A stretch of 64,000 nt of DNA from an uncultured Candidatus Actinomarina sp. (GTDB lineage: Bacteria; Actinomycetota; Acidimicrobiia; Actinomarinales; Actinomarinaceae): the NCBI GenBank assembly GCA_902627635.1, contig CACOKA010000001.1, positions 34,778-98,777 of the forward strand. The letters run 5' to 3'. Under the pieces are notes generated by a model, which saw only the letters and a program-made list of their open reading frames with translations, was not told the DNA's origin and did not search any database. Both the position numbers and the translations under genes were made by a program. Position 1 is the stretch's first letter. Every line of letters begins with the position of its first letter. Shown here in pieces: positions 429-32,417 of this stretch.

Positions 429-435
429 TAGGATA

Positions 436-1050: not shown

Positions 1051-1051
1051 A

Positions 1052-1880: not shown

Positions 1881-1882
1881 TT

Positions 1883-3772
1883 TTGAGTATTTTAATATTA
1901 GGCGTAATTCTCATTCCTTTTCTTACGTCATTGTTCTTAAAAGTTATTGGTAAATTTTTAAATGAATTACTTACAAATTTTATAACTTTAAATGCTGCGA
2001 TGCTTTCGTTAGCAACGTCATTTTTTTTGTTTGGTTATATTTTTTTTGATAAATTCAAACCATTAAAATTTGAAGTATTTCAATGGTTTCCTAATCCAGA
2101 AATAAATTTTGAATTTTATTTAGACGGGCTTTCAGGAGTTATGATGGTTTTGATTTGTGGTCTTAGTCTTGTGATACAGTTGTTCTCAACCTCTTATATG
2201 AGTAAAGATGAAAATTACACAAAATATTTTGAATATTTTAATTTTTTTGTTTTTTCAATGTTACTTCTTGTCCTGTCGGGAAATTTCTTAGTTATGTTTT
2301 TTGGTTGGGAGCTTGTAGGTCTAAGTTCTTATCTCTTAATTTCATTTTGGTCTGAGAAGAAATCAGCTGCTAAAGCTGGTAATAAAGCATTTATTTTGAA
2401 TAGAATCGGGGATTTTGGTTTCCTTATAGGTCTAATGATGATAATCAGCGAATTTCAAACTTTTAACTTTTTAAGCATTTTTGAATCAACATTGGAAACT
2501 AAACCTGAAAATCTTGATGTAATGATTGTATTTTTACTTTTAGGAGCTTTTGGAAAATCTGCTCAATTCCCTTTATTTAGCTGGTTACCAGACGCAATGG
2601 AAGGACCAACACCTGCAAGTGCATTAATTCATGCGGCGACAATGGTTACAGCTGGAGTATTTATGCTTGTAAGAATTTCCCCAATTTTACAATTTTCAGA
2701 ACTTGGTAGCTTGATAATAATCAGTATGGGTCTTTTAACTGCTTTAATTGCAGCTTTTGCTGCAATAAATCAAAAAGATATAAAAAAAGTTTTAGCATAC
2801 TCAACTATTTCTCAGCTTGGATTCATGTTTATAGCTATTGGATCTGGAGCATACGTCGCAGCAATATTTCATCTTGTTACCCACGCATTTTTTAAAGCAC
2901 TTTTATTTTTAGGAGCAGGGGCAGTCATTCATGAAATGCATCATGAGCAAAATATATACAAAATGGGGGGATTAAGAAAGAAAATGCCAATCACAGCTGC
3001 AATGATGGGAATAGGCACACTAGCTATATCCGGAATTCCTCCTTTGGCAGGATTTTGGTCAAAAGATGAAATACTCGCATCAGTGTTTTCTAAAGGAGGC
3101 ATTTACTATGGATTTTGGGCTTTATCCCTATTAGCTGCATTTATGACAGCCTTTTACATGGGAAGACATTGGTTATTGATATTTGTGAAAGAACCAACTA
3201 GTGATATTGAAAATATACATGAAGCTCCAAAAAATATGACAAGACCATTAATTTTGCTTGGAATATTTTCTGTATTTATAGGGTTTATTAATACACCTTT
3301 TTTTCATGGATTAGAAAAAGTTTTATATGAGACACTTCAAAGTGTAGAAGTAACTCATCTTCCAGAGGGTATCACTTTGGCAATATTGGCTGTGTTATCA
3401 ATTGGTGCTGGTTTTTCTGGTCTTGGGCTTGCCTACTTAATTTATATATTTGATATTTTTTCTTATTTCAAAATTAAGCTCCCATTTTTAAGTGAAATTA
3501 AGCTTTTATCAAAAGAAGTTCTTTTCTTAGACAAAGTTGGTAATGCAATATTTGTCAGGGGCTTAAAAACTTTATCAAGGAAAGTAGCCGTTACAGTCGA
3601 TAACATGACTATCGATGGAATTGTAAACGGAGTCGCAAAGTCTTTTTATAGGTCTTCTCAGCAGATTTCTTTAGTTCAAACAGGATTAGTAAGAAACTAT
3701 GTTGTTTACTTTGGTCTTTTTATGTTGGTACTCATAGTTGTATATCTATTTTCACCAGGAGTATTAATTTGA
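1883..3772 (+). CDS. nuoL: NADH-quinone oxidoreductase subunit L
   Basis: 629-aa antiporter-like subunit with FGWELVGLSSYLLI, WLPDAMEGPTPASALIHAATMVTAGV and QLGFMF motifs of NuoL/ND5. Confidence 0.95.
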   Translation: MSILILGVILIPFLTSLFLKVIGKFLNELLTNFITLNAAMLSLATSFFLFGYIFFDKFKPLKFEVFQWFPNPEINFEFYLDGLSGVMMVLICGLSLVIQLFSTSYMSKDENYTKYFEYFNFFVFSMLLLVLSGNFLVMFFGWELVGLSSYLLISFWSEKKSAAKAGNKAFILNRIGDFGFLIGLMMIISEFQTFNFLSIFESTLETKPENLDVMIVFLLLGAFGKSAQFPLFSWLPDAMEGPTPASALIHAATMVTAGVFMLVRISPILQFSELGSLIIISMGLLTALIAAFAAINQKDIKKVLAYSTISQLGFMFIAIGSGAYVAAIFHLVTHAFFKALLFLGAGAVIHEMHHEQNIYKMGGLRKKMPITAAMMGIGTLAISGIPPLAGFWSKDEILASVFSKGGIYYGFWALSLLAAFMTAFYMGRHWLLIFVKEPTSDIENIHEAPKNMTRPLILLGIFSVFIGFINTPFFHGLEKVLYETLQSVEVTHLPEGITLAILAVLSIGAGFSGLGLAYLIYIFDIFSYFKIKLPFLSEIKLLSKEVLFLDKVGNAIFVRGLKTLSRKVAVTVDNMTIDGIVNGVAKSFYRSSQQISLVQTGLVRNYVVYFGLFMLVLIVVYLFSPGVLI

Positions 3773-5259
3773 TAAGTTTAGCTTATAGTTTTATTCTCCT
3801 TCCTATTATAAATTCAGCCTTTATTTTTTTGGTTCCAAAAAGAAGAGGAGAGCTATTTAGACCCTTAAGCATTTTTCTTAGTTTAATTCCACTAGGCCTC
3901 TGTCTTTATATGTTTATTAATCAAGACCTAAAGACAAGCTTTGTTGTAGTAGATTCAATATCTTGGATCTCTGCCTACGGAATAGATTTAATAATTGGAT
4001 TTTCTGGAATGTCTTTTCTATTAATTTCATTGAATTGTTTATTAGTACTTTTATCAATTCTTTCTGTAAACCAAGACCATGGTTCGAGCAAAGGATTTCT
4101 TGGATCAATCATGTTACTTCAGGGTTCAGTAAATGGGGTATTTTTAGCAGGTGATTTAATCTCCTTATTTATATTTTTTGAGGCATTGTTGATACCTATG
4201 TATTTTCTAATGGGTATATGGGGTGGTGAAAATAAAAGGTATGCAACAATTAAATTTATCTTATATACAGTTTTTGGCTCTATTTTTATATTGGCCGGTA
4301 CAATATACACGGGTGTTTTAAGTTTCCAATCGTCTGGAACATTCGCACTTGACTTTGATTCAATTGCTAATATTTCAATGACCTCAAATCAATCTAAAGT
4401 ATTATTTTTATTATTCACTTTTGGGTTTCTAATAAAAGTTCCTCTTTTTCCACTTCATACATGGCTACCGGATGCACACGTTGAGGCGCCAACTGCTGGA
4501 AGTATCCTTCTTGCCGGTGTACTTTTAAAAGTTGGAGCTTATGGAATATTAAGGGTGTCAATCCCTTTCTTCACTGAGGGTTTTTTGGAATATCAATTTT
4601 TGATTGCTTTCTTATCTGTATTTGGAATAATTTATGGAGCGATTGTTGCAATTGTTCAGATTGATATTAAAAAATTAATTGCCTATTCCTCAATTAGTCA
4701 TATGGGATTTGTGATGCTAGGAATATCAGCAGGTAGATATTTAAGTCTTGAGGGAGCAGTTATACAAATGATAAATCATGGTATTACATCAGGTGCATTA
4801 TTTATGCTCGTAGGATTTCTGTATGACCGAAGGCATACAAGAAGAATTTCAGATTTTGGTGGTCTTAAAAAATCTATGCCACTTTATGCTGGAATATTTT
4901 TGTTTACTTCATTTGCTTCAATTGGACTTCCTGGACTAAATGGTTTTGTTGGAGAATTTATGATCTTAATGGGAAGCTTTCCAAGTTTTAAGATTCTTTC
5001 TTCAATTGCCGCTTTTGGAGTGGTACTTGCAGCCATTTATATGTTGTGGGCATATCAAAGAATATTTAATGGACAATTAGATAATGACGAAAATGCAGTT
5101 TTGACTGATCTTAATTCCAAAGAACTAGTTGCTGTCGTGCCACTTCTTATATTAATGCTATTTATAGGGGTTTATCCGAGTTTTGTTGAGAGCTATATAG
5201 TAAATGATGTATCAATTATCTATGATGCAATCAATAGTTTATCTGGAGTCTTAGAATGA
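3769..5259 (+). CDS. nuoM: NADH-quinone oxidoreductase subunit M
   Basis: 496 aa with the NuoM/ND4 motifs WLPDAHVEAPTAGS and AYSSISHMGFV. Confidence 0.95.
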   Translation: MISLAYSFILLPIINSAFIFLVPKRRGELFRPLSIFLSLIPLGLCLYMFINQDLKTSFVVVDSISWISAYGIDLIIGFSGMSFLLISLNCLLVLLSILSVNQDHGSSKGFLGSIMLLQGSVNGVFLAGDLISLFIFFEALLIPMYFLMGIWGGENKRYATIKFILYTVFGSIFILAGTIYTGVLSFQSSGTFALDFDSIANISMTSNQSKVLFLLFTFGFLIKVPLFPLHTWLPDAHVEAPTAGSILLAGVLLKVGAYGILRVSIPFFTEGFLEYQFLIAFLSVFGIIYGAIVAIVQIDIKKLIAYSSISHMGFVMLGISAGRYLSLEGAVIQMINHGITSGALFMLVGFLYDRRHTRRISDFGGLKKSMPLYAGIFLFTSFASIGLPGLNGFVGEFMILMGSFPSFKILSSIAAFGVVLAAIYMLWAYQRIFNGQLDNDENAVLTDLNSKELVAVVPLLILMLFIGVYPSFVESYIVNDVSIIYDAINSLSGVLE

Positions 5260-6728
5260 GAGCTATTGCTGATGCTATTGGATTTAATTTAGTTGTTATT
5301 TCTCCGACAATTACTCTTGTACTAACAGCATTAATCTTGTTATTTTTTACTATCACAATTGAATCAAATGAAAAAGTTAAACAAGTAATAACTTTTTCTG
5401 GTGTAGTTTCAACAATATTTTGTGTATTTCTAAAATTTGGTCTATTTCTTCAAAACGGTGTTAGTTCTTATTTTTCTAAAAAAATTCTATTAGACGAATT
5501 TTCTCTTTTTGGTAATGTTCTGATTGGACTCATTTTACTTTTTAACATACTACCAATTTGGGATTCCTCGTCTCAGCTGAGGGAGAAAACAACAGAAGCA
5601 ATTATTCTAACACTAATGAGCACCTCAGGATTTATGCTTATGGTAGATTCAGAGAACTTAATAATGCTTTTCATTGGTCTTGAGATAGGATCAATTAGTC
5701 TTTATGCACTTGCAGGTTTGAATCGAGTAGATAAATTAAGCAACGAAGCATCTTTAAAATACTTTTTATTAGGATCTCTTGCATCTTGTATATTTATTTA
5801 TGGCGTTTCTTTAGTGTATGTCTCATTTTCTGTACTTAGTGTATATGACTTTGCCACCGGAGTCGGATTTGTTGGGGCAGATTCGGTGCCATTGACAACT
5901 AAATTAGGTGTAATTCTTATTTTTATTGGGCTATTATTCAAGATTGCTGCAGCCCCTTTTCAGTCATGGGCACCAGATGTTTATCAAGGATCACCAACTG
6001 GATATGTTGGTTATATGGCTTCAATAGCTAAAGCCTCGGCATTTATTGTAATTGCTAGATTGTGTCAAGTTTCATTAAGATTTATGCCAAATGAATTTGA
6101 TTCGTTTTTTCTACTAGTTGTAATACTTTCTGTAATAATTGGATCTTTTTTTGCTTCTGTACAAGACGATTTAAAAAGACTCTTAGCTTATAGTGGAGTG
6201 GTCCAGTCTGGTTTTATTCTTTCAGGGATAGTATCTGGAATCAATGGAACGAGTGCTTCAATGTTTTATCTTTTTGCTTACATCATCCAATTAATTGGAA
6301 TTTTTGTAATTTTTTCAATCATCAATGGAAAAATGTCATCTAATTTCAACATTCAAGATATACAGGGACTAATAATTAACAATAAATTCCTCGCAGTTAC
6401 ATTTTGTACTTTTATGCTTGGTTTGGCTGGTATTCCACTAACTAGCGGATTTGTTTCAAAATTTATTTTATTAACTAATTTATGGGCGTATCAAAAATAT
6501 CTCTTAGTTTCCATTCTTCTTCTGTCAACAGTTGCTGGATTTTATTTCTATTTGAAACCAATCTGGATTGCAACAATTGAAAAAACAGAGACACCAGTTC
6601 AGAATTTCAAAATAAAAAGATCTGAATATTTATTAATTAGCTCATTAGCAACAATGACAATATTTTTTGGCCTTGTTCCAAGCTCTTTAATTAATATTTC
6701 AAGATGGGTTGTCCAGAGTTATCTATGA
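5256..6728 (+). CDS. nuoN: NADH-quinone oxidoreductase subunit N
   Basis: 490 aa with NuoN/ND2 motifs (FKIAAAPFQSWAPDVYQGSPT, LLAYSGVVQSGF). Last gene of the operon. Confidence 0.9.
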   Translation: MRAIADAIGFNLVVISPTITLVLTALILLFFTITIESNEKVKQVITFSGVVSTIFCVFLKFGLFLQNGVSSYFSKKILLDEFSLFGNVLIGLILLFNILPIWDSSSQLREKTTEAIILTLMSTSGFMLMVDSENLIMLFIGLEIGSISLYALAGLNRVDKLSNEASLKYFLLGSLASCIFIYGVSLVYVSFSVLSVYDFATGVGFVGADSVPLTTKLGVILIFIGLLFKIAAAPFQSWAPDVYQGSPTGYVGYMASIAKASAFIVIARLCQVSLRFMPNEFDSFFLLVVILSVIIGSFFASVQDDLKRLLAYSGVVQSGFILSGIVSGINGTSASMFYLFAYIIQLIGIFVIFSIINGKMSSNFNIQDIQGLIINNKFLAVTFCTFMLGLAGIPLTSGFVSKFILLTNLWAYQKYLLVSILLLSTVAGFYFYLKPIWIATIEKTETPVQNFKIKRSEYLLISSLATMTIFFGLVPSSLINISRWVVQSYL

Positions 6729-15926: not shown

Positions 15927-15928
15927 AA

Positions 15929-19238: not shown

Positions 19239-19604
19239 ATGATTTCTTATTTTCAGGATTACGTTACTGTTGGGGCAATGATAGGTCTCGGACTTGTCTT
19301 GTTTCTAGTTTTTATTTCCGTATCTGCATTACTTAGTCCCAAAAAACCAACTCCAGAAAAAGTTAAAACATACGAGTGCGGAGTAGATCCAGTAGGTGGT
19401 GGATGGAGCCAAACTTATGTTAGATACTATATATTTGGTTTATTATTTGTAATTTTTGACGTTGAGGCAGTATTTATTTTTCCATGGGCACTGAATCTAG
19501 AAAATCTTGGATACTTTGGCTTGGTTGAAATGTTTATCTTTATTTTTATTCTCTTACTTGGTTTGATATATGCAATTAGAAAGGATGTCCTCAAATGGGA
19601 GTAA
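19239..19604 (+). CDS. nuoA: Complex I subunit A (second, 11-subunit operon)
   Basis: 121 aa, 3 TM, YECG motif, [12 protein letters not shown]. Confidence 0.85.
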
Positions 19605-20092
19605 TTGAAAAGTTTGGTATCCCAAAGCCTATTTCTAAAATATTGAATTGGGCAAGAGCATATGATATGTGGTATTTCCAATTTGGTTTAGCATGCTGTG
19701 CCATTGAAGTTATGGCAGCAAGTGGACCAAGACACGATTTTATGAGATTAGGTATAATTCCACTTCCTGCATCGCCAAGACAAGCTGACCTAATGGTGGT
19801 TGCAGGTACCGTAACCGATAAAATGGCCCCAGCAGTCAAAAGATTATATGACCAAATGCCGGAACCAAAGTATGTAATTTCAATGGGTTCATGTTCAAAC
19901 AGTGGGGGACCGTATTGGGATTCTTACTCTGTTACAAAAGGTGTAGATCAATTAATTCCAGTAGACGTTTATGTTCCCGGATGTCCACCAAGACCAGAAG
20001 CTTTGCAAGAAGGAATAGTTTTATTACAGAAAAAAATAAAAGGTGAAGATATGAAAGAAAAGTGGAGAGAAAAAGACATTGAACCAGTCTGA
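19595..20092 (+). CDS. nuoB: Complex I subunit B (N2 [4Fe-4S] carrier)
   Basis: Cys ligands present: [18 protein letters not shown]. Confidence 0.9.
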
Positions 20093-20639
20093 TCAAAACG
20101 AATTCGTAAATTCAATTCAAAGTAAATTTCAAAATTCATCAGTTGAATTTGATACATTAAAAATTGAAGTAGATTCTCAGTCTTGGGTTGATACGCATAA
20201 GACATTGAAAGCAGAATTTAATTTAAAATTTTTTAATTGGCTATCTGCTGTTGACTGGGATAACGATGTAAAAATTGGTGACGCACCAAAAGAATCAGTA
20301 ATCCCAAGTTTTGAAATAATAAGTTGTTTATCAAAAACAAATTCTGACGACTTAGTTATATCATCTACAAAGATTTCAAAAGAGGAACCACAGATTGATT
20401 CATTAGTTGAAGTTTTTGGTGGAGCGAACTGGCATGAAAGAGAAGCTTATGAAATGTTTGGTATAAATTTCTTGAACCATCCAAATTTAAAGAAACTTTA
20501 TCTTCCTGATGCTTATGAAGGGAATCCTTTACTTAAATCATTTGAGTTGATAAGTAGAGAAGTTAAACCTTGGCCAGGTGAAGTTGATGTAGAAGGTATG
20601 CCAGAAGATAACAACGTAGTCTCAGAAGAGGGTAGCTAA
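20079..20639 (+). CDS. nuoC: Complex I subunit C (30-kDa subunit family)
   Basis: 186 aa with ERE(A/V)YDMFG-like motif [13 protein letters not shown]. Separate from nuoD (not a fused C-D). Confidence 0.8.
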
Positions 20640-21835
20640 TGGCTCAAACGATGGATCCAAACAATATGCCAATTTTATCTGAAGCATCAGTTTCTGTTGA
20701 AATTGAAACAGAAGATATGACTTTAAATATTGGTCCTCAACATCCTTCGACTCACGGTGTTTTAAGGTTAGTAGCTAAAATTAATGGAGAAAAAATATCC
20801 AGTGTTGAACCTGTGCTTGGATATATGCATAGAGGATATGAGAAACTTGCAGAAGTAAGAACTTATCCACAAGTAACAACATTAGTAAATAGAATTGACT
20901 GGGTTTCAGGTTTTGCGAATGAGATTCCATTTATCGCTGGTGCTGAAAAATTAATGGAAATCGAAGTACCTGAAAGAGCACAATACATCAGACTGATTTT
21001 GACAGAAATGGCAAGAATAAGCTCCCACTTTGTTTTTAACGGTGCTTTCCCACTTGAGATTGGTGCACTAACACCTATATTTTTAGCTATGGAAGATCGA
21101 GAAAGAGTTCTTGATTTGCTCGAATCTGTTACTGGTGGAAGATTTCATCCAAACTTTAATCGAATCGGTGGGGTAAAACCTGCCGCAGGTGCTGGGCCAA
21201 CAACAAAAAAAGATATACAGGATTTACCAGCAGGTTTTTATCACGATACCAAAGTTGCAATGCAAAAAGTTCTCGAAGCTGTTGATAGATTTGAAGATTT
21301 AATTGGCGGAAATGAAGTATTTCAACTTAGAACAAAGAATGTTGGTATATTACCAAAAGAAGTTGCGGAAGAGTACGGAGTATCTGGCCCAATATTGAGA
21401 GCATCTGGTGTTGAGTTTGATTTGAGAAAACAATCAAATTACTTACCATATGACAAATTTGACTTTGAAATACCAATTGGTGAAAATGGTGACTGTTTCG
21501 ATAGATGGGCTGTAAGAACATCCGAAATGAGAGAATCTGCAAAAATTATTTTACAAGCAATTGAAGACATGCCTTCTGGGCCAATCCAAGCAAAAGTACC
21601 AAAAGTTATAAAAGTTCCAAAAGGACAAACATATGTAAGAGCAGAAAATCCTAAGGGTGAAATGGGATATTATATAATTTCTGAAGGTGGTTTAGGGCCT
21701 TATAGGTTAAAAATAAGAACAGCTTCATTTAGTAACATATCAATTTTGCCAATAATGCTTGAAGGAGCATTGCTTCCTGACTTGATAGCAATAATGGGTA
21801 GTTTAGATTTTGTTCTTGGAGATGTAGATAGATGA
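20639..21835 (+). CDS. nuoD: Complex I subunit D (49-kDa/NiFe-hydrogenase large-subunit-like)
   Basis: NIGPQHPSTHGVLRLV N-terminal motif. 398 aa. Confidence 0.9.
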   Translation: MAQTMDPNNMPILSEASVSVEIETEDMTLNIGPQHPSTHGVLRLVAKINGEKISSVEPVLGYMHRGYEKLAEVRTYPQVTTLVNRIDWVSGFANEIPFIAGAEKLMEIEVPERAQYIRLILTEMARISSHFVFNGAFPLEIGALTPIFLAMEDRERVLDLLESVTGGRFHPNFNRIGGVKPAAGAGPTTKKDIQDLPAGFYHDTKVAMQKVLEAVDRFEDLIGGNEVFQLRTKNVGILPKEVAEEYGVSGPILRASGVEFDLRKQSNYLPYDKFDFEIPIGENGDCFDRWAVRTSEMRESAKIILQAIEDMPSGPIQAKVPKVIKVPKGQTYVRAENPKGEMGYYIISEGGLGPYRLKIRTASFSNISILPIMLEGALLPDLIAIMGSLDFVLGDVDR

Positions 21836-22812
21836 GTTTTAGTACCGAATTACTTATCAAAGTTTTGGTTGTTTTAGCTACAGCTCCAGCAATGGCCTTA
21901 GGGCTTACTTTGCTGGAGGTTAAAGGTTCTGCCTGGATGCAAAGAAGACCAGGTCCTCTTCATGTTGGTTTAAGAGGATTTATATTTCCACTTGCAACAG
22001 CTGCAAAATATTTACAAAAGGAAACAATCATTCCAAATGATGTTGATGAGCCTGTATTTAAGTGGGCACCAGCTTGGGTTATAGCAGCTGTAGTAGGCCT
22101 TTTTACAATTATTCCATTAAGTCCCACGTTAATTGTTCGTGATCTGGAATTAGGAGTCTTCTTTTTACTTGCAATCAGCTCCATCTCTACTATTGGAGTT
22201 CTTACAGCTGGATGGTCCTCTGCAAACAAATTTTCTCTAATGGGTGGTTTAAGAGCAGCAGGCCAACTTATTGCCTATGAATTACCACTAATTTTATCTG
22301 TAGTTGGTGTAGTTATACAAGCTGAAACTATGTCAACAGTTGGAATAGTAGAAAAACAGATTGAATTTGGATTTCCTTTTGTAATTGCAGGACAGGGTAT
22401 TGCTTTTATTATTTTTATGATTGCAGCAACTGCTGAAATGATGAGAACACCATTTGATATGCCAATTGGTGAATCTGAATTAACTATGGGCTTTTTTACA
22501 GAATATTCTGGGATTAGATTTCTTATTTTTTATATTTCTGAATACATAAATTTATTTGTAATGTGTGCGATTGCCTCAACTCTTTTCTTAGGAGGTTATC
22601 ATGTACCACTTTTACCTACTGAATGGGTTAACTTTTATGGTCCATTGGTTCTAATTGGAAAGACATTTTTACTTGCATTTATCCTTATTGCTATAAGATG
22701 GTCTTTCCCACGATTCAGGGAAGATCAACTTCAGACCCTTGCTTGGAAAGTCCTTATACCACTCTCTCTTTTGAATATAATGGTTACAGCAATCATGAAA
22801 GTTGTTTTTTGA
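21832..22812 (+). CDS. nuoH: Complex I subunit H. It directly follows nuoD, with no nuoE/F/G in between
   Basis: 326 aa with ND1 motifs (GLRGFIFPLA, TMGFFTEYSGIRF). Its start overlaps the nuoD stop by 4 nt. Confidence 0.9.
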   Translation: MSFSTELLIKVLVVLATAPAMALGLTLLEVKGSAWMQRRPGPLHVGLRGFIFPLATAAKYLQKETIIPNDVDEPVFKWAPAWVIAAVVGLFTIIPLSPTLIVRDLELGVFFLLAISSISTIGVLTAGWSSANKFSLMGGLRAAGQLIAYELPLILSVVGVVIQAETMSTVGIVEKQIEFGFPFVIAGQGIAFIIFMIAATAEMMRTPFDMPIGESELTMGFFTEYSGIRFLIFYISEYINLFVMCAIASTLFLGGYHVPLLPTEWVNFYGPLVLIGKTFLLAFILIAIRWSFPRFREDQLQTLAWKVLIPLSLLNIMVTAIMKVVF

Positions 22813-23297
22813 TGCAAAAATTCAAACCAAGGATTCCTGGATTTTTAACTGGACTTAAAATTGTCATTGGCAATATGTTTAAAACCCTTCTTCCTTTTTT
22901 TGAAAATCCTAATGTAAATTATCCTTTTGAAAAAGAAATACTCGCACCTAGAACTAGGGGTGTCATCGCTTTAGATTCTGAAGCATGTACAAGTTGCATG
23001 TTGTGTGCAAGATCTTGTCCAGACTGGTGCATTTACATAGAGGGTCACAAAGAGTTACAACCTCCTTCAAAGCCAGGAGGACGTCAGAGAAGTAGAGCGG
23101 TACTCGATCGGTTTGACATTGATTATGCACTTTGTATGTATTGTGGGATATGTGTTGAAGTATGCCCATTTGATGCATTGTTTTGGTCACCTGAATACGA
23201 ATATTCAGAATTTTCTATGGGCGATATGCTCCATGACAAAGATAGGCTTGATGAATGGCTAAAGACTGTTCCTGAAGGTCCAGGTTTAGAGAACTAA
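22812..23297 (+). CDS. nuoI: Complex I subunit I (2x[4Fe-4S])
   Basis: CTSCMLCARSCP and CMYCGICVEVCP motifs. ATG at 22812 overlaps the nuoH TGA (tgATG) and is in frame with track ORF 22698..23297. Confidence 0.85.
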   Translation: MQKFKPRIPGFLTGLKIVIGNMFKTLLPFFENPNVNYPFEKEILAPRTRGVIALDSEACTSCMLCARSCPDWCIYIEGHKELQPPSKPGGRQRSRAVLDRFDIDYALCMYCGICVEVCPFDALFWSPEYEYSEFSMGDMLHDKDRLDEWLKTVPEGPGLEN

Positions 23298-23815
23298 TGG
23301 AAGCAATAGACATATTTTCATACTTTCTTTTGCTGTTGCTTTTACTTAGTGGAGTAAAAGTTGTGACAACATCAAATGTTATACACGCTGCCATATTTTT
23401 AGTTTTTACTCTTGCTACCACTGCTGTTTTATTCATATTATTATCGGCTGAATTTGTAGCTTTAGTCCTAATACTTGTATATATAGGTGCAGTTATTGTT
23501 TTATTTTTATTTGGTGTGATGATCACAAGAGCTCCTTTAGGTCCAAATGCTGAACTAGATAATGATCAAAATAAATTATTGGCTGCTGTCATATCATTTT
23601 CAATTTTTGGAATATTTACTTATATTCTTCTACAAACTTTTGATTCAACAGTAGTTATAAGCGAAGGAACATCTACGAAACTATTAGGAGAAATTTTGTT
23701 AAGTAGATTTGTGTTTCCTTTTGAGCTGGTTTCATTTGTTTTGTTAGGAGCTTTAATTGGTGGCATTACATTAGCAAGAAAAGATAATGCATTAATGGAT
23801 GAAGATCAAATATGA
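23297..23815 (+). CDS. nuoJ: Complex I subunit J
   Basis: 172-aa membrane protein between nuoI and nuoK. Confidence 0.8.
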   Translation: MEAIDIFSYFLLLLLLLSGVKVVTTSNVIHAAIFLVFTLATTAVLFILLSAEFVALVLILVYIGAVIVLFLFGVMITRAPLGPNAELDNDQNKLLAAVISFSIFGIFTYILLQTFDSTVVISEGTSTKLLGEILLSRFVFPFELVSFVLLGALIGGITLARKDNALMDEDQI

Positions 23816-24117
23816 GCATTCAACCATTACTGATTGCAGCAGCAGCTTTATTCTCTATAGGTATTTATGGAATTCTTGTAAGAAGAAACGCAGTAATGGT
23901 TTTACTGTCAATTGAGCTGATTCTTAATTCGGTAAACATAAATTTTGTAGCATTCAACGCTATGCTTTCAGATGTTTTTTTAAATGGCCAGATTTTTTCA
24001 ATTTTCATTATCACTATTGCAGCAGCAGAAGTTGGTATTGGATTAGCTATTGTTCTTATGCTTTTTAGAAATCGAGAAACAGCCAATATAAATGAATTTG
24101 ATTTAATGAAATGGTAA
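23812..24117 (+). CDS. nuoK: Complex I subunit K
   Basis: 101 aa, ND4L-like (SIELILNSVNINF, AAAEVGIGLAIV). Confidence 0.85.
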   Translation: MSIQPLLIAAAALFSIGIYGILVRRNAVMVLLSIELILNSVNINFVAFNAMLSDVFLNGQIFSIFIITIAAAEVGIGLAIVLMLFRNRETANINEFDLMKW

Positions 24118-26129
24118 ATCAAAATTTTATAAATTTTCTTGCTGAAGGTCAGCCAGAATATACTGATGGTGGTGTACTCGCTGAATTTACTTGGTTGATT
24201 GTTGTACTTCCATTCTTAGCTGCAATTTTGATTACTTTTTTTGGAAAATATCTACCATTACAAGGTGCAGAGCTAGCTTTAGGAACAGTTTTATTCATAT
24301 TTTCATATAGCGCAGCTTTACTTTATCAGCACGCGACAAAAGGAATCGCCAATGAATTTTTTATCAACGTAGGAAGTATTGGTTCTTATGATCTTGAGTT
24401 TGGCTGGGTCGTTGATGGATTATCTATCATGATGTACTTCGTAGTTGGAACTGTTTCATCTTTAGTTTTCATATATGCAACAAATTATATGCAAGGTGAA
24501 ATAAGATATACTTTCTTTTTCACATCACTCACATTATTTGCTGGGAGTATGTTAGTTTTAGTTTCTTCTCCAACACTTTTGCAATTGTTGATTGGTTGGG
24601 AATTAGTTGGAGTTTGTTCATATCTACTAATTGGTCATTACTGGGAAAAAAAGGAAAATTCTTCCGCAGCGATGAAAGCATTTATAACTAATAAAATTGC
24701 TGATGTCGGGTTAATGATTGGAATCATTGTTCTTGCTTTATCAACAAAAACCTTGAGAATTTCTGAGATATTGTATCAATCAACTCATGATTATGCAGAT
24801 ATCAAAACTGTGGCATATTTAGGTGGAGTTCTTCTTTTTATAGGTGCAATGGGAAAGAGTGCTCAATTTCCACTTCATGTTTGGTTGCCTGATGCAATGG
24901 CAGGCCCAACACCAGTATCTGCTTTAATGCATGCAGCAACAATGGTCACCGCGGGTGTCTATCTTCTTGGTCGGATGTTTCCTTTCTACCAGGGAATGGC
25001 ATCACAAGCACTGGATATAGTTCTTTTATTCGGAGTAATTACACTTCTTGGAGCAGGATTAGTCGCTGTAGTTCAAGATGATCTCAAAAAAGTTCTTGCA
25101 TATTCTACAGTAAGTCAACTTGGTTACATGGTTACAGCAATGGGTTCAGGTGCATACACTGCGGGTCTTTTTCACCTATGGACTCATGCATTTTTTAAAG
25201 CTTTATTATTTTTAGGTGCTGGCTCGGTAATTCATGCAGTGCACACAAATAACATGTCTGAAATGGGTGGACTAAGGAAAGAAATGCCCAGAACATTTTC
25301 AACCTTCATTATTGGAACTGTAGCCCTTGCTGGACTTCCTCCATTAGCTGGATTTTTCTCAAAAGATGAGATACTCGCATCACTCAATCACGAAGGGCAT
25401 AATTTATATTTTATTATTTCTGTTCTTGGAGCCTTTATCACTGCGTTTTACATGACAAGAGCAGTTCTTTTAACATTTTTTGGTGACTATCGGGGTGATG
25501 GACACCCTCACGAATCTGACAAGATGATGACAATTCCATTGATAATATTATCAGGATTTGCCATTGTTGCAGGATGGGCAAACATACCTGGTGTTTATAC
25601 AGGATTTACAAAATGGGTTACAACAAGGAAAAATTACATTGTAGAATATCACCCTGAATCATTTGATTTGGTTGCTATGTTCAGTGGTCTTACATCTGGA
25701 CTTTTGGGTATTGGACTTGCCTACTACGTCTATCAGATGTCAGGAAATGCAACTGACGGCGATGAAAAAATTAAAATAAAACCAATATGGAATTTATTGG
25801 AAAATAAATACTACTTAGATTTCTTCTACTTCAAATTCATAATTGATCCTGTAAAAATAACTTTTGCTAAATTTGTTGACTCATTTAATTCAAATGTCCT
25901 TGATCGGTTTGTTAATGGTGTTGGGACAACTGCTTCAAAAGCAGGCGGAATTGTATATACAAATCTTGACCAAGGAGGCATTGACAAAGTACTTAATTTA
26001 TCATCAACAGGTACAGACACTATTGGAAGTAAAGTCAAATTAATTCAAACTGGTAAAACTCAACAATACTTAATGTATTTTTTAATAGGAGTGATAGTTA
26101 TTAGCTTAATAATTTTGTTAGTGTTATGA
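24111..26129 (+). CDS. nuoL: Complex I subunit L
   Basis: 672 aa with WLPDAMAGPTPVSALMHAATMVTAGV and QLGYMV. The long C-terminal horizontal-helix region is present. Confidence 0.9.
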   Translation: MVNQNFINFLAEGQPEYTDGGVLAEFTWLIVVLPFLAAILITFFGKYLPLQGAELALGTVLFIFSYSAALLYQHATKGIANEFFINVGSIGSYDLEFGWVVDGLSIMMYFVVGTVSSLVFIYATNYMQGEIRYTFFFTSLTLFAGSMLVLVSSPTLLQLLIGWELVGVCSYLLIGHYWEKKENSSAAMKAFITNKIADVGLMIGIIVLALSTKTLRISEILYQSTHDYADIKTVAYLGGVLLFIGAMGKSAQFPLHVWLPDAMAGPTPVSALMHAATMVTAGVYLLGRMFPFYQGMASQALDIVLLFGVITLLGAGLVAVVQDDLKKVLAYSTVSQLGYMVTAMGSGAYTAGLFHLWTHAFFKALLFLGAGSVIHAVHTNNMSEMGGLRKEMPRTFSTFIIGTVALAGLPPLAGFFSKDEILASLNHEGHNLYFIISVLGAFITAFYMTRAVLLTFFGDYRGDGHPHESDKMMTIPLIILSGFAIVAGWANIPGVYTGFTKWVTTRKNYIVEYHPESFDLVAMFSGLTSGLLGIGLAYYVYQMSGNATDGDEKIKIKPIWNLLENKYYLDFFYFKFIIDPVKITFAKFVDSFNSNVLDRFVNGVGTTASKAGGIVYTNLDQGGIDKVLNLSSTGTDTIGSKVKLIQTGKTQQYLMYFLIGVIVISLIILLVL

Positions 26130-26143: not shown

Positions 26144-27721
26144 TTGAGTAGTTTTTCTTTTTTGGAGAGTGGATTAGGTTTAACCGTAGTAGTTTTTCTT
26201 CCCCTTGTATCTGCAATTTTTATATTCTTAATACCTAAGAAACAAGAGATGATAATTAAATTAGTAACTCTTGGATCTGCACTGCTTACTTTTGCAGTAA
26301 GTTTAATTGTTGCTTTGCAATTTGATTTTAATAACGCTGGTGACCTTCAGCTTGGCACTAAGGTCTCATGGATTAGTAGTATTAATTCAAATTATGAAAT
26401 AGGTATAGACGGTATTTCTTTACCTTTATTACTTTTATCTACTTTCATTTCTGTATTGGCAATTATTTATTCTTTTGAACATTTACCTGAACCAAAAAAT
26501 GCAAAAGGAATGATGTCTTTGATTTTAATTTTAGAAACTGGAATGAATGGTACATTTGTGGCATTAGATCTAATTTTATTTTTTGTATTTTTTGAACTTG
26601 TTTTACTACCAATGTATTTCATGATTGGTATTTGGGGAGATAAAACTGTCAGAAGTGTTTCTGGACTTAAGAATGATATTGAAACAAGACTTTATGCAAG
26701 TATTAAGTTTTTTGTATTTACATTATTTGGATCTGCTTTCATGCTTCTAGGATTCCTAGGTTTATATTTCAGGGGAAATAGAACATTTAGTATTCCAGAA
26801 CTAATTGAGCTTGGCTCTAGTGGAGCATTCACAGGTACATTTGCAACGTTAGTTTTTGCTGTTTTATTTTTGGGGTTTGCAGTAAAAGTACCAATGTGGC
26901 CACTACATACATGGTTGCCTGATGCACACACAGCTGCACCAACTGTTGGATCTGTTTTATTAGCCGCTATTTTGTTAAAACTTGGATCCTATGGTTTTGT
27001 AAGAATTGCTTTACCTATACTTCCAGAACAGGCTGTTGCTTGGGCTCCAGCTATTGCAGTGCTGTCAGCAATTGGAATAATATACGGTTCTCTTGCTTGC
27101 TTGGCACAAACAGATCTTAAAAGATTGATTGCATTTTCTTCAGTAGGACATATGGGCTTTGTAATGCTTGGGATATCTTCACTTACCTCAATAGGTATTA
27201 ATGCTGCAATGATTGGAATGGTTGCCCACGGAATAATTACTGGTTTATTGTTCTTTGTTTCTGGTTCTATGGCACATACTTATCACACTAGAGACATGGA
27301 AAGATTAGGTGGAAATATGAAACTTCTTCCAAAGACCGGAGCCATTTTAGCTTTTACAGCTATGGCGTCACTTGGCTTACCTGGATTGGCAGGATTTTGG
27401 GGAGAATTTATGGCTCTCCTTGGAGCGTACAATCCATTACCTGGTTTAAACATTACAATTTTTAGATCTTCCATGGTTGCAGGTGCAATTGGAACTGTTT
27501 TAACAGCAGGTTATTTATTATGGATGCTTCAAAGAGTTAATCTTGGTGAACCTAAAGAAGAATGGTTAGATAAAGAGCTTCATGATGCAGACAATTATGA
27601 GCTTGTTGCTTGGATACCTTTAGTAATACTTACTGTTCTAATCGGAGTATTTCCAAAACTTATATTTGGAGCAACTAATGATGCAGTTATTGCTTTGGTA
27701 TCTAAAGCGTTCGGAGGCTAA
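26144..27721 (+). CDS. nuoM: Complex I subunit M
   Basis: 525 aa with WLPDAHTAAPTVGS and AFSSVGHMGFV. Confidence 0.9.
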   Translation: MSSFSFLESGLGLTVVVFLPLVSAIFIFLIPKKQEMIIKLVTLGSALLTFAVSLIVALQFDFNNAGDLQLGTKVSWISSINSNYEIGIDGISLPLLLLSTFISVLAIIYSFEHLPEPKNAKGMMSLILILETGMNGTFVALDLILFFVFFELVLLPMYFMIGIWGDKTVRSVSGLKNDIETRLYASIKFFVFTLFGSAFMLLGFLGLYFRGNRTFSIPELIELGSSGAFTGTFATLVFAVLFLGFAVKVPMWPLHTWLPDAHTAAPTVGSVLLAAILLKLGSYGFVRIALPILPEQAVAWAPAIAVLSAIGIIYGSLACLAQTDLKRLIAFSSVGHMGFVMLGISSLTSIGINAAMIGMVAHGIITGLLFFVSGSMAHTYHTRDMERLGGNMKLLPKTGAILAFTAMASLGLPGLAGFWGEFMALLGAYNPLPGLNITIFRSSMVAGAIGTVLTAGYLLWMLQRVNLGEPKEEWLDKELHDADNYELVAWIPLVILTVLIGVFPKLIFGATNDAVIALVSKAFGG

Positions 27722-27777
27722 AAATTAACATTAATTATTTCGCTATATCAAGTGAATTAATAGTAATCCTAACGATT

Positions 27778-29205
27778 GTGGCTGCTATAACTTTAGATAT
27801 ACTATTACCAAGAAAATTTAAATTCATCATTGCAATGGTATCAATTCTTGGATCGCTATTTGCATTCCTTCCAATTATTTTTCAATTTGCCAACTATACA
27901 ACTCCAGAAATTATGTTTGAGGGAAGTTATGTAATTGATAAATTTTCCTTGATTCTTAAAGGCCTATTTATCTTGGTTACGTATCTGACATTTTTATTAT
28001 CCGTAAATTTTGTCGAAAGTGATGAATATTACCAGGGAGAATATTATTTTCTTCTGTTAAGTTCTCTCCTTGGAGCAATAGTAGTAACCTCTTCAAGAGA
28101 TTTATTAACAATGTTTATTGGAATTGAATTAGCTTCAACGCCAATGTTTCTTTTATCTGGATGGAAAAAAGGCGATCAAAAATCAAATGAAGGTTCAATT
28201 AAATTCTTTTTACTGGGAGTACTATCAGCATCTTTAATTCTTTATGGCTTTTCACTACTTTATGGAGTTACTGGAAAGTTAGTTTTTTCAGATATAGCTA
28301 ATATTTTAATTCAGCAGGATCTTGCCCAATCACCTGTTGCTTTATTAAGCGCAATACTTATTTTGGCGGGTATAGGCTTCAAGATATCGATAGTTCCATT
28401 CCACTCTTGGGCACCTGATACTTATGAAGGAGCACCTTTACCAGTAACGGCTTATCTATCTGTTAGCTCTAAAGCGACTGGGTTTGTTGCATTAATTATT
28501 TTGATGTCAAAAATATTTTTTGAATCTGGAGATGGATTAGGGATAATACTTGTATTCATTTCTGGAATAACAATGTTTGTTGGTAATTTATCAGCTTTAC
28601 AACAAACAAATCCAGTAAGACTTTTAGCATATTCATCGATTGCACAGGCAGGGTTTATTCTTGCGCCGTTAGCAGTTGCAAACATAACAAATAATTTTGA
28701 AGATGGTGTTTATGCAAGCGTTACGTATCTAATTATTTATGCATTTATGAATATAGGTGCATTTTTAGTGATTAATTTGTTACAAAGAAATATTGACTCA
28801 GAAAACATGTATGACTGGGGAGGTCTTGCAAAAGAAACACCATTAGCAGGAATTTTTGCAGTAATATTTTTCTTCTCTCTTGCAGGGATTCCACCTCTGG
28901 GAGGATGGTTTGCAAAATTTGTAGTTTTCAGAAGTTTACTAAGCACAGGTGAAATTTTTGGATTATCTCTAGCTGTAGTTGGTGCTATAAATGCTGTGAT
29001 AGGTTTGGTATATTATTCAAGAATTTCAAAAATTATATGGATGGATAGTCCAAAAGAAGATGTTCAAAAGACCGAAAATTCAATCATCCCAAGCCCACTA
29101 AAAGTTGTTGGTTTTGTAAGTTTAATTTTGACAATTGTCTCTGGAATTTTTCCAGGCATATTCAGCAATCTAGGTGAAGCTTCATCAATATTTTTTAATA
29201 GCTAA
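27778..29205 (+). CDS. nuoN: Complex I subunit N
   Basis: 475 aa with ISIVPFHSWAPDTYEGAP and LLAYSSIAQAGF. Confidence 0.85.
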   Translation: MAAITLDILLPRKFKFIIAMVSILGSLFAFLPIIFQFANYTTPEIMFEGSYVIDKFSLILKGLFILVTYLTFLLSVNFVESDEYYQGEYYFLLLSSLLGAIVVTSSRDLLTMFIGIELASTPMFLLSGWKKGDQKSNEGSIKFFLLGVLSASLILYGFSLLYGVTGKLVFSDIANILIQQDLAQSPVALLSAILILAGIGFKISIVPFHSWAPDTYEGAPLPVTAYLSVSSKATGFVALIILMSKIFFESGDGLGIILVFISGITMFVGNLSALQQTNPVRLLAYSSIAQAGFILAPLAVANITNNFEDGVYASVTYLIIYAFMNIGAFLVINLLQRNIDSENMYDWGGLAKETPLAGIFAVIFFFSLAGIPPLGGWFAKFVVFRSLLSTGEIFGLSLAVVGAINAVIGLVYYSRISKIIWMDSPKEDVQKTENSIIPSPLKVVGFVSLILTIVSGIFPGIFSNLGEASSIFFNS

Positions 29206-29209: not shown

Positions 29210-30244
29210 GTGGTAGAAAAAAAATTTATTGATTACCTCAAAAATAAATACAGTCAAAACTATTTATACTTTGATGAATTCATGCAGGAATGTCTTTACT
29301 CTGATTATGGATTTTTTGCAAAGGGTGAAGTCCGCTCTAGTACATCTGGTGATTTTTTAACTTCACCAGAAGTATCTAATTATTTTGGATTATTTATTTC
29401 AAACTGGATAAAAGAAAATAGAATCAATAGCAATTCAAATATACTTGAAGTTGGAGCAGGAACAGGTTCACTTGCGAATCAGGTGTCAAAGTATCTTGAA
29501 AAAGAAATCTATGTATCAGAAATTTCATTAAATGCCCTTAAAGCACTTAAGAATAAAAATTTTTTGGTTGATAGCAATTTAGACAACTTTGGTTCATCAC
29601 AGGTAAAAACTATTTATATGAATGAAGTGTTAGATAATATACCTTGTTCTGTCGGTATAGAAGTAGACAATACTTGGTATGAAAAAACAATTGAATTTAC
29701 AAATGATAATGAACTTAGATATGGAAAAGTAAAAATGCGTGAATCAAATCTTAAATGGATTAAAAAGTATAATTTTTTAGACAACCAAGATAATGAGCTT
29801 GAAATTCAATACAACACGGAACAATTTTTAGATGGACTCATCAAAAAAGTTGACCCAAATCATCTACTAATTTTTGATTATGGATTCGAATACGAAAAGA
29901 GAAATCTAAAACCATATAAATCATTAATTAGAACTTATAAAGAACATCATCTTTCAAGTGATCCAATAGAAATGCCTACGGAGACCGATATCACGTACGA
30001 TGTAAATTTTTCCTTTTTAAAACAATATTTTGAAGAAAATAATTTTGAATACAAAATTATGAAACAATATGAATTTCTTGATAAGTATGGTTACCAGGAA
30101 ATTTATTCAAGTTTAAAAAACCAATTTGTAGAAACTTATGGCGTAGACCAACTTAAATTAAAATCAGATATTGTTGGGCTAGAAGCAATACATAATGATC
30201 GTGGTCTAGGAGGTTTTTACTGTATTGAGGCCAAAAAACTATAA
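29210..30244 (+). CDS. MidA/NDUFAF7-family (DUF185) SAM-dependent methyltransferase
   Basis: SGDFLTSPEVSNYFGLF...W and ILEVGAGTGSLA motifs match the NDUFAF7/MidA signature (GDFITSPEISQ.FGEL, LVE.GPGRGTL). Starts 5 nt after the nuoN stop. Confidence 0.7.
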   Translation: MVEKKFIDYLKNKYSQNYLYFDEFMQECLYSDYGFFAKGEVRSSTSGDFLTSPEVSNYFGLFISNWIKENRINSNSNILEVGAGTGSLANQVSKYLEKEIYVSEISLNALKALKNKNFLVDSNLDNFGSSQVKTIYMNEVLDNIPCSVGIEVDNTWYEKTIEFTNDNELRYGKVKMRESNLKWIKKYNFLDNQDNELEIQYNTEQFLDGLIKKVDPNHLLIFDYGFEYEKRNLKPYKSLIRTYKEHHLSSDPIEMPTETDITYDVNFSFLKQYFEENNFEYKIMKQYEFLDKYGYQEIYSSLKNQFVETYGVDQLKLKSDIVGLEAIHNDRGLGGFYCIEAKKL

Positions 30245-30268: not shown

Positions 30269-31108
30269 ATGAATGTTTTAAAAACTACTACTTTATTAAC
30301 GCTTATGACTGTTTTAGTAATATTTACTGCTCAAGCACTGGGTTTTGATCTTATTTTTTCTTTGTTCTTTGCTTTTCTCTTTAATTTCATAATGTATTTT
30401 TATTCATCTCGAATAGCACTTGCTTCAACCAGAGCAAGAAAAATTGAAGATGGAGAATATGATGAGGTTAGAGAAATAATTACTTTTCTTGCACAAAAAG
30501 AAAAAATGCCAATGCCTGAACTTTATGTAATCGAAAGTGACCAACCAAATGCGTTCGCTACAGGAAGAAATCCAAAAAATTCTGCTGTTGCTGTTACAAC
30601 AGGGATTATGAAAGTTCTAAATAGAGATGAGCTTGAGGGTGTTCTAGCTCATGAATTATCACATATCAAAAATAGAGATATCTTAGTATCAAGTATCGCA
30701 GCGATGCTTGCAGCTGCAATTTCATTTATGTCAAGAATGGCTTTTTGGGGCGGGGGACAGAGAGATAGAGGAACACATCCATTTATTATCTTGATAGCAT
30801 TTATCGCAGCGCCTATTGCATCTTTAATAATTAGATTGGCAATATCAAGAACTAGAGAATATGGAGCAGACAAAACAGGTTCTTCCATATCTGGAAATCC
30901 ACTAGCATTAGCCTCAGCTCTTGAAAAGATTGAGATGTATTCAAAAAACCCATTGAATGTTAATCCGGCCGTTAGTCAGTTGTTTATATCTGATCCTTTA
31001 AAATCATTTACTGGTTCTGGATTGAGAAAATTGTTTTCTACCCACCCACCAACTAAAGAAAGAGTAAGAAGGCTCAGAGAGGAAGCTAGTGGAATTAGAT
31101 ATAGATAA
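30269..31108 (+). CDS. htpX: Zinc metalloprotease HtpX (M48)
   Basis: N-terminal TM helices, HELSHIKNRD zinc motif, and a conserved C-terminal region. Confidence 0.9.
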   Translation: MNVLKTTTLLTLMTVLVIFTAQALGFDLIFSLFFAFLFNFIMYFYSSRIALASTRARKIEDGEYDEVREIITFLAQKEKMPMPELYVIESDQPNAFATGRNPKNSAVAVTTGIMKVLNRDELEGVLAHELSHIKNRDILVSSIAAMLAAAISFMSRMAFWGGGQRDRGTHPFIILIAFIAAPIASLIIRLAISRTREYGADKTGSSISGNPLALASALEKIEMYSKNPLNVNPAVSQLFISDPLKSFTGSGLRKLFSTHPPTKERVRRLREEASGIRYR

Positions 31109-31448
31109 TACTGGGGACTCAACAGGTGTTTTTCCAAATGAACTAGATACTAAATTATCATCGGGCTGGAGTTTGATAGATGTTAGGGAAGATGATGAAT
31201 GGACATATGGACATCATCAGCAAGCAAAACATATAAAGATGAGTGAAGTACCAGAAAGCTTAGAATTATTTGATCAGGAATCTTCTTATATTATTGTATG
31301 TAGATCAGGTCACAGATCAGGCAAGGTTTCAGAGTATTTAAATTCGCTTGGTTATCAATCTTATAATCTTATTGGTGGAATGAAAAAGCTCTCCAATGAA
31401 TCTAATAAAATCGTCGGTTCTGATGGAAATCCAGGTATTATCATTTAA
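31089..31448 (+). CDS. Rhodanese-domain sulfurtransferase
   Basis: LIDVREDDEW...IIVCRSGHRSG is a rhodanese active-site loop (CRSGHRS). GTG start overlaps the htpX end. Confidence 0.75.
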   Translation: MELDIDNTGDSTGVFPNELDTKLSSGWSLIDVREDDEWTYGHHQQAKHIKMSEVPESLELFDQESSYIIVCRSGHRSGKVSEYLNSLGYQSYNLIGGMKKLSNESNKIVGSDGNPGIII

Positions 31449-31457: not shown

Positions 31458-32417
31458 GTGATTATTTGTATTGGAAATGCACTTGTTGATTCACTTCAAC
31501 AAATCGAAGAAGATGTTATTAATAAACTAAACCTTAACAAAGCAAGAATGACTCTTGTTGATAAAGAGAGATCAAACTTTTTACTTAACAATATGCAAAA
31601 CCCGACTTATGCTGCAGGAGGCTCTGCAGCAAATACGGCTTATTGGATAGCGGCCTTAGGAGGTTCCGTAGGATTTATTGGTAAAATCTCAGATGATGAT
31701 CTTGGAAAACAGTTCAGGTCAAGTTTATCTGAGCATGGGCTCAGTGACTTTACAGTTCTTGAAGAAGAAAATGAACAAACTGGATTGTGTGCAATTTTTA
31801 TAACACCAGATGGTGAACGAACAATGAATACATATTTAGGAGCTGGTGCCCAGTTATCAATGGGAGATCTTAATGAGGAGTCTATAAAAAATTGCAACAT
31901 TTTATATATGGAAGGTTATTTGTGGGACAGGTTACCAAGCAAAGAAGCATTTATGTATGCATCATCGATAAATAAACAATCTGGTGGAAAAAATGCTTTG
32001 TCTTTATCAGATGTTTTTTGTGTTGAAGCACATAGAGAAAGTTTTGTTGATCTAATAAAAGAAAATATAGACTATGTATTTTGTAACGAAGATGAAATAA
32101 AAGCCCTTACAGAACAGCAATCCATTGAAAAGTCATTAGATTTTATAAATAAAAATTTTCCTAAACTTGATCAACTTATATGCACATTAGGAGCTAAAGG
32201 GGCCATAGTTATGAAAGAAAATATACAGTATTTCTTTGAAGCTACAGAAGCAAAGGTTGTTGATAAAACAGGTGCAGGGGATTATTTTGCTGCAGGATAT
32301 TTATTTGGAATAGAAGAAAAATTATCTCTGCAGGAGACTGCATTAATTGCAAATAAAAGTGCTGCCCATGTAATTAGTGAAATTGGAGTAAGGCCAGAAA
32401 AGCCATTTAATCTTTAA
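31458..32417 (+). CDS. PfkB-family carbohydrate/nucleoside kinase (adenosine-kinase-like)
   Basis: N-terminal GG motif region (AAGGSAANTA) and C-terminal DKTGAGDYFAAGYLFG signature. Confidence 0.8.
   Translation: MIICIGNALVDSLQQIEEDVINKLNLNKARMTLVDKERSNFLLNNMQNPTYAAGGSAANTAYWIAALGGSVGFIGKISDDDLGKQFRSSLSEHGLSDFTVLEEENEQTGLCAIFITPDGERTMNTYLGAGAQLSMGDLNEESIKNCNILYMEGYLWDRLPSKEAFMYASSINKQSGGKNALSLSDVFCVEAHRESFVDLIKENIDYVFCNEDEIKALTEQQSIEKSLDFINKNFPKLDQLICTLGAKGAIVMKENIQYFFEATEAKVVDKTGAGDYFAAGYLFGIEEKLSLQETALIANKSAAHVISEIGVRPEKPFNL

Follow-up and report, generated by a model that had tools for sequence, protein, structure and literature searches.

In mitochondria, the methyltransferase NDUFAF7, known in Dictyostelium as MidA, symmetrically dimethylates an arginine of NDUFS2, the 49-kDa subunit of complex I and the homologue of bacterial NuoD. 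Carroll et al. (2013, PMC3750175) mapped the symmetric dimethylation to Arg-85 of the bovine 49-kDa subunit, a residue contained in the tryptic peptide KCDPHIGLLHRGTEK. The methylated arginine forms part of an HRGxE motif and corresponds to R121 in Yarrowia, and NDUFS2-R121 and Thermus Nqo6-R83 fill the same space (Hameedi et al. 2021, PMC8042128). Dimethylarginine is also present in Nqo4 of the bacterium Paracoccus denitrificans (PMC3750175). Here, we examine a gene of the MidA family (midA) that lies directly behind an 11-gene complex I (nuo) operon in a 64,000-nucleotide (nt) stretch of DNA, referred to as the window, from an uncultured Candidatus Actinomarina sp. (contig CACOKA010000001.1, positions 34,778 to 98,777).

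Parts of this arrangement have been described before. Lopez-Perez et al. (2020, PMC7771536) placed the heliorhodopsin gene of Actinomarinales between two nuo clusters, one of which lacks nuoEFG. For Ca. Actinomarinales (their cluster C11), Bulzu et al. (2021, bioRxiv 10.1101/2021.02.01.429150) reported a same-strand series of afuABC, heliorhodopsin, nuoABCDHIJKLMN, NDUFAF7 (K18164/PF02636), htpX, the rhodanese gene pspE, and adenosine kinase, and regarded NDUFAF7, htpX, and pspE as accessory factors in assembly. The published Ca. Actinomarinales locus has the same gene order as the window, with a 14-subunit nuo operon nearby, so both the order and the annotation of the nuo-midA locus are already on record. 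The first-pass annotation of this DNA, made from the letters alone, had called the arrangement striking; the sighting was correct, although Bulzu et al. had reported it before. The sections of these two reports that deal with the locus do not discuss the target residue, the exchange of arginine and threonine between the two complex I paralogues, or the linkage beyond Actinomarinales. What is new here is the exchange of Arg and Thr between the paralogues and the linkage of nuoN to midA across the class, which lend modest further support to a role of MidA in complex I.

The reading we favor, with somewhat better than even confidence, is that the open reading frame (ORF) encodes a protein methyltransferase of the MidA/NDUFAF7 family, whose expression accompanies that of the 11-subunit complex I and which likely methylates the HRGxE arginine (Arg65) of its NuoD. 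By analogy with mitochondria, MidA would be made together with the 11-subunit complex and would methylate NuoD Arg65, probably by symmetric dimethylation as NDUFAF7 does, before or during the docking of NuoD onto NuoB. Once NuoD is docked, Arg65 would contact the environment of cluster N2. The analysis shows the family membership, the gene order with its conservation, and the occurrence of the target arginine in one paralogue but not in the other; we infer co-transcription, the substrate, how it is methylated, and any part played in assembly. The features on which this reading turns are the following, in window positions.

29210..30244, plus strand: midA, a MidA/NDUFAF7-family (PF02636, COG1565) S-adenosylmethionine (SAM)-dependent methyltransferase of 344 amino acids (aa), assigned by Pfam, by profile search against the PDB, and by AlphaFold2 (AF2) modeling with Foldseek
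20639..21835, plus strand: nuoD (49-kDa/NDUFS2 homologue), the predicted MidA substrate (PF00346, E = 3.7e-84; NCBIfam NuoD models, 417-452 bits)
20831..20833, plus strand: codon of NuoD Arg65 (GYMHRGYEK), the equivalent of bovine/human NDUFS2 Arg-85 and the predicted methylation site, placed by alignment to Thermus Nqo4 Thr64
20765..20767, plus strand: codon of NuoD Arg43 (PQHPSTHGVLRL), the residue named in the first-pass annotation, which is not the known methylation site
19595..20092, plus strand: nuoB (PSST/NDUFS7 homologue, cluster N2), whose best PDB matches are mitochondrial NDUFS7
3..6728, plus strand: 3' part of a second, 14-subunit nuo operon (partial nuoH', then nuoI' to nuoN'), found by tblastn; the genes for NuoD' and NuoB' fall just beyond the window edge, and their sequences were taken from contig L081

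Membership of the ORF at 29210-30244 in the MidA/NDUFAF7 family is secure. The gene starts with GTG at 29210 and stops at 30244, and nuoN ends at 29205, which leaves 4 nt between the two genes. Both strings from which the first-pass annotation had recognized a DUF185/MidA-type methyltransferase are present in the protein (GDFLTSPEVSNYFG, residues 47-60; LEVGAGTGSL, residues 79-88). The match to Pfam PF02636 (Methyltransf_28) has E = 1.6e-22 and a score of 80.7 bits, well above the gathering cut-off of 23.3, and runs from residue 63 to 278, or profile positions 7-242 of 249. Searched as a single sequence, the protein matched PDB entries weakly (1ZKD, 2e-6; 5ZTZ, 1.6e-5), probably as a result of its AT-rich composition. 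A profile built from 25 Acidimicrobiia homologues performed much better and matched, in the PDB, only 4F3N (4e-44), 1ZKD (1e-30), and Dictyostelium MidA 5ZTZ (1e-26). The AF2 model (predicted local distance difference test score, pLDDT, 80.2; predicted template modeling score, pTM, 0.83) has a class I (seven-beta-strand) core with MidA-specific extra elements, and MidA/COG1565 proteins are its nearest solved structures. In a Foldseek search of the PDB, its top five matches were 4F3N, 1ZKD, 5ZU0, and 4G67 entries (E from 8e-15 to 5e-14; template modeling [TM] scores of 0.65-0.73), followed by generic methyltransferases at E ~1e-6 and TM 0.35-0.45. Five segments, GDFLTSPEVS, GAGTGS, NEVLDNIP, DYG, and DITYDVNF, are invariant in the 25 homologues; in the form GDFxTxPExS, SAM-binding GxGxG, NExxDxxP, DYG, and DxTxxVxF, they are common to this family and to 1ZKD, 4F3N, and 5ZTZ.

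These searches also bear on whether the protein is instead a generic class I methyltransferase, acting for example on rRNA or a small molecule, that resembles DUF185 only superficially. Models for RsmA/KsgA, UbiE, and other methyltransferases in Pfam and NCBIfam did give sub-threshold matches, and KsgA-like PDB chains were matched at E ~1e-3. However, the model matches cover the SAM-binding motif alone (residues ~63-149) and fall far under the models' own cut-offs, whereas PF02636 spans residues 63-278 above its cut-off and the MidA structures are ahead by at least 8 orders of magnitude in the profile and fold searches. We consider this explanation excluded for all practical purposes. The Pfam check that the first-pass annotation had called for thus agrees with its family assignment, and the profile search did not place the protein with an unrelated class I family.

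The NuoD encoded by the operon carries the arginine that such an enzyme would be expected to modify, within the peptide ISSVEPVLGYMHRGYEK. This is not the arginine originally proposed. The first-pass annotation correctly noted that NuoD keeps a PQHPxxHGVLRL string (PQHPSTHGVLRL) and tentatively took its arginine for the methylated residue, but that residue, Arg43, lies 22 residues upstream of the true site, Arg65. Its broader suggestion of Q-module methylation in a bacterium was not a new idea, given that Paracoccus Nqo4 is modified (PMC3750175).

The organism's second complex I provides a comparison within one cell. A contig with an identical NuoJ' (L081) supplied the full 14-subunit operon, nuoA to nuoN with nuoEFG (L081:818-15074). 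Its NuoD' reads VIGYLHTGMEK, with threonine at the methylation site as in Thermus, and its NuoB' reads IVAGRVSQK, in which the arginine aligns with Thermus Nqo6 Arg83 and with the Mycobacterium smegmatis equivalent. The 11-subunit NuoB has Thr72 at the Nqo6 Arg83 position, in VVAGTVTDK; mitochondrial NDUFS7 reads IVAGTLTNK here. The best matches of the 14-subunit NuoB and NuoD are to Mycobacterium and Thermus, and those of the 11-subunit NuoB are to mitochondrial NDUFS7. At these residues, the 14-subunit enzyme follows the Thermus/Mycobacterium layout (NuoB-Arg, NuoD-Thr) and offers no such methylation substrate, and the 11-subunit enzyme follows the mitochondrial/Paracoccus layout (NuoD-Arg, NuoB-Thr). 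The midA gene follows the sole paralogue with a methylatable NuoD arginine. We lean, only slightly beyond an even judgment, toward a bacterium with two complex I enzymes, a 14-subunit form with an unmodified NuoB arginine near N2 and an 11-subunit form in which the NuoD arginine would be dimethylated by an operon-encoded methyltransferase.

The remaining genes of the 11-subunit operon and of the array that continues behind it are listed below.

19239..19604, plus strand: nuoA (ORF, tblastn synteny)
20079..20639, plus strand: nuoC (NCBIfam NuoC family matches)
21832..22812, plus strand: nuoH, overlapping the nuoD stop
22812..23297, plus strand: nuoI, whose ATG start overlaps the nuoH stop
23297..23815, plus strand: nuoJ
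23812..24117, plus strand: nuoK
24111..26129, plus strand: nuoL
26144..27721, plus strand: nuoM
27778..29205, plus strand: nuoN, the last complex I gene (NCBIfam TIGR01770, 357 bits; cut-off, 332.6)
30269..31108, plus strand: htpX-like M48 membrane metalloprotease gene, 24 nt after midA (PF01435, E = 6.6e-36)
31089..31448, plus strand: rhodanese-domain protein gene (pspE-like), overlapping the htpX end (PF00581, E = 9e-13)
31458..32417, plus strand: PfkB-family (adenosine) kinase gene, the last of the array (PF00294, E = 3.9e-50)

The eleven nuo genes (A, B, C, D, H, I, J, K, L, M, and N) are packed into 19239-29205 on the plus strand, with most junctions overlapping by 1-14 nt, and between nuoA and pfkB neighboring genes either overlap or are separated by no more than 56 nt. 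No terminator-like site was found on the plus strand after 28490, including after nuoN; a sigma-70 promoter scan was uninformative here (52 sites, against 74 in shuffled sequence). With midA 4 nt behind nuoN and the same-strand array continuing past it, as the first-pass annotation had noted in placing the gene directly behind the operon, midA is probably co-transcribed with the nuo genes. The nuoD and nuoH genes overlap by 4 nt, so that no nuoE, nuoF, or nuoG lies between them. The description "N-module-less" used in that annotation accordingly suits the operon; it does not suit the organism, whose second operon has nuoE, nuoF, and nuoG.

An Fpo-type F420H2 dehydrogenase was proposed for the 11-subunit cluster in the account of it given by Lopez-Perez et al. 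(PMC7771536). Our comparison did not favor this identity: the FpoD model NF040602 scored 336 bits against a cut-off of 600, and the NuoD models scored higher (417-452 bits), in a comparison that did not include a search for FpoF.

To examine how widely midA accompanies complex I, we surveyed 80 loci from GTDB species representatives by tblastn with the window proteins; 35 Actinomarinales loci had upstream sequence, as did 37 of 44 loci from other Acidimicrobiia in sufficient length to be informative. The nearest midA homologues and loci came from single-cell genomes and metagenome-assembled genomes (MAGs) of Candidatus Actinomarina/Actinomarinales, at up to 98% identity. Within Actinomarinales (midA identity 41-98%), all 35 loci have nuoN in front of midA at a distance of 8-30 nt, and htpX lies 27-30 nt downstream in all loci with intact downstream sequence. 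Other Acidimicrobiia are GC-rich and their midA products share only 28-32% identity with the query; here, nuoN lies within 250 nt in 14/37 loci and within 4 kb on the same strand in a further 10/37, for a total of 24/37 with nuoN-midA linkage. The first-pass annotation had named a lack of conserved synteny in related genomes as one outcome that would speak against it, and the survey found the opposite. Wherever both genes are visible, nuoD adjoins nuoH, as in the 11-subunit type, with a gap of 0-257 nt in related loci. GYMHRG[YK]EK occurs in all 40 midA-linked NuoD sequences in which the site is covered, and VAGT in all 35 linked NuoB sequences.

Outside this class the picture differs. For MidA of the 1ZKD type, named for the Rhodopseudomonas structure, we examined 80 metagenome loci, of which 34 are at least 8 kb long, and found no nuo or htpX gene in the flanks. 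The operonic link between nuo and midA is a feature of Acidimicrobiia and not of the family as a whole.

Several observations weigh against the proposal that MidA methylates NuoD Arg65. The Acidimicrobiia MidA family is nearer to the uncharacterized Burkholderia COG1565 protein 4F3N (4e-44) than to the validated 5ZTZ (1e-26), and because that closest structure is uncharacterized, orthology to the mitochondrial NDUFAF7 branch is not established. The HRGxE arginine proves nothing alone, because E. coli NuoCD keeps it yet is unmethylated (PMC3750175); nor is it diagnostic, since cyanobacterial NdhH also reads GYLHRGMEK. In other Acidimicrobiia, 13/37 informative loci have no nuo gene within 4-10 kb upstream of midA, and many of these nuo-less loci instead keep midA-htpX or a divergent luciferase-like monooxygenase gene near midA. 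Synteny within Actinomarinales could reflect mere shared ancestry in very compact genomes. Finally, PMC12455994 describes the function of prokaryotic MidA as inferred in silico only.

Such observations leave room for a MidA-family methyltransferase with some other substrate, protein or nucleic acid, whose place behind nuoN is simply an inherited order in compact genomes. One third of the informative distant loci lack nuo near midA, the nearest structure has no assigned function, and the 80 loci of the 1ZKD type lack a nuo neighbor, which indicates that the family is not operon-bound to complex I overall; for a Wolbachia MidA, an action on DNA has been proposed (PMC12455994). Against inherited order, however, linkage to nuoN holds where protein identity is down to ~30% and GC content has shifted greatly. 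Moreover, the target arginine is present in every linked NuoD but missing from the organism's unlinked paralogue, and experiments support no substrate of the family other than the HRGxE arginine. We judge another substrate to be unlikely, if still a serious contender.

The downstream neighbors raise a different possibility, namely, that midA mainly partners htpX (the M48 protease gene) and the rhodanese gene in quality control of membrane proteins or Fe-S proteins, with complex I as one client or a mere neighbor. The tight spacing of htpX behind midA throughout Actinomarinales would fit this idea, as would the adjacency of the two genes (at most 1 kb) in 13 non-Actinomarinales loci, some of them without nuo (including L045, L052, L053, L054, L057, and L059). 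Yet many nuo-linked loci (L038, L040, L048, L050, L075, and L080) lack htpX or have it only at a distance, no connection between the MidA family and HtpX is known, and the idea would not account for the presence of Arg in one NuoD paralogue and Thr in the other. We regard a primary partnership with htpX as quite improbable and continue to favor NuoD Arg65 as the likely target of MidA.

The survey yielded further observations on the surroundings of midA. In ten distant loci, insertions of 0.7-3.9 kb separate nuoN from midA. We considered whether they hold an extra conserved partner, such as an electron-input subunit, but their ORFs are heterogeneous and none recurs: they encode a cation-chloride/amino-acid permease, an Asp/Glu racemase, a histidine kinase, a pyrroloquinoline quinone (PQQ)-repeat protein, and PNPOx-like or F420H2-quinone-reductase-like proteins. 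The last of these, at L049:8402-8890 and L060:9345-9875, are weak matches to PNPOx-like or F420H2-dependent quinone-reductase-like families and may bear on the proposed use of F420 by the 11-subunit enzyme. At nine loci where midA is not linked to nuo (L052, L053, L058, L059, L066, L069, L076, L077, and L078), a divergent luciferase-like monooxygenase gene (PF00296, E ~1e-48) lies directly upstream. No link to complex I was evident for the neighbors in nuo-less loci, which comprise this monooxygenase (9 loci), a glycogen synthase, and a histidine kinase. One Acidimicrobiia contig (L036:1378-4703) carries nuoN on the strand opposite to midA and downstream of it, a convergent arrangement unlike that of all other loci. 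Acidimicrobiia-type nuo-midA contigs also occur in MAGs labeled Flavobacteriaceae, Gammaproteobacteria, Kiloniellaceae, Acidobacteria, and Gemmatimonadales (L023, L046, L049, L065, and L075), probably through binning contamination.

The wider window largely resembles the published surroundings. A heliorhodopsin gene (PF18761, E = 1e-89) lies at 17177-18001 on the plus strand, upstream of the 11-subunit operon; a PglZ/phosphodiesterase-like gene at 18077-19162 on the minus strand stands between it and nuoA, so that here the heliorhodopsin gene and the operon do not form an unbroken same-strand run. In the non-Actinomarinales locus L049, a heliorhodopsin homologue (L049:15253-15981) lies ~4 kb downstream of midA-htpX, and the heliorhodopsin-nuo-midA neighborhood may therefore reach beyond Actinomarinales. 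Between the two nuo operons, 10965-16954 holds an iron-dependent repressor, a ferrochelatase, and an afuABC-like Fe(III) ATP-binding cassette (ABC) transporter, which fits the published description. Downstream of the 14-subunit operon, a 180-aa ORF at 8868-9410 (plus strand) gives a borderline match to PF05176 (ATP10, the mitochondrial ATP synthase assembly factor family), at 22.0 bits against 22.3. Housekeeping genes occupy 33909-63232 on the plus strand; Pfam identifies an extracytoplasmic function (ECF) sigma factor, nusG, rplK, rplA, rplJ, and rpoB, and ORF sizes and order alone suggest rpoC, fusA, tuf, ribosomal-protein operons, and secY after rpoB.

If the favored reading is correct, the partnership of MidA with complex I would not be limited to Proteobacteria and mitochondria, would be independent of the NADH-oxidizing module, and would be old enough to have been fixed in an operon across the class Acidimicrobiia. 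The locus would offer eukaryote-independent genomic-context evidence tying MidA to the N2-proximal arginine and, should MidA modify the 11-subunit NuoD, would be the first complex I operon known to encode an enzyme for the post-translational maturation of its product. Because one cell has both paralogues, one with the arginine on NuoD and the other with it on NuoB, the pair would make a clean natural comparison of whether dimethylation serves assembly, tuning of the N2 potential, or both. Bacterial methylation of the HRGxE arginine has been known since 2013 (PMC3750175), and what we add is a refinement rather than a discovery.

How does this locus compare with the systems described so far? With NDUFAF7/MidA, which symmetrically dimethylates NDUFS2 Arg-85 (human; Dictyostelium 5ZTZ/5ZU0), the Actinomarina protein shares PF02636, the fold, and the signature motifs. 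Its partners are likewise a NuoD that carries the HRGxE arginine and a NuoB of the mitochondrial AGT type. It differs in sequence (~19-22% identity by Foldseek and MAFFT) and in length (344 aa, compared with 414 aa in the 5ZTZ chain), and its gene sits in a complex I operon. The complex that it would serve has 11 subunits and no N-module.

Rhodopseudomonas palustris 1ZKD and Burkholderia thailandensis 4F3N/4G67 are bacterial members of the same family, and 4F3N is the best match by both profile and fold. In the Proteobacteria from which these structures come, complex I is of the 14-subunit type. MidA of the 1ZKD type lacks the nuo and htpX flanks, whereas midA of Acidimicrobiia usually follows nuoN. 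Paracoccus denitrificans Nqo4 offers a further likeness, as a subunit of a bacterial complex I in which this arginine does carry the methylation (PMC3750175). The complex I of Thermus thermophilus and Mycobacterium (Nqo4 Thr64 with Nqo6 Arg83) corresponds to the organism's own 14-subunit paralogue, which has the same HTG/AGR pair. Unlike the 11-subunit operon, this paralogue is not followed by midA, and it serves as an internal negative control.

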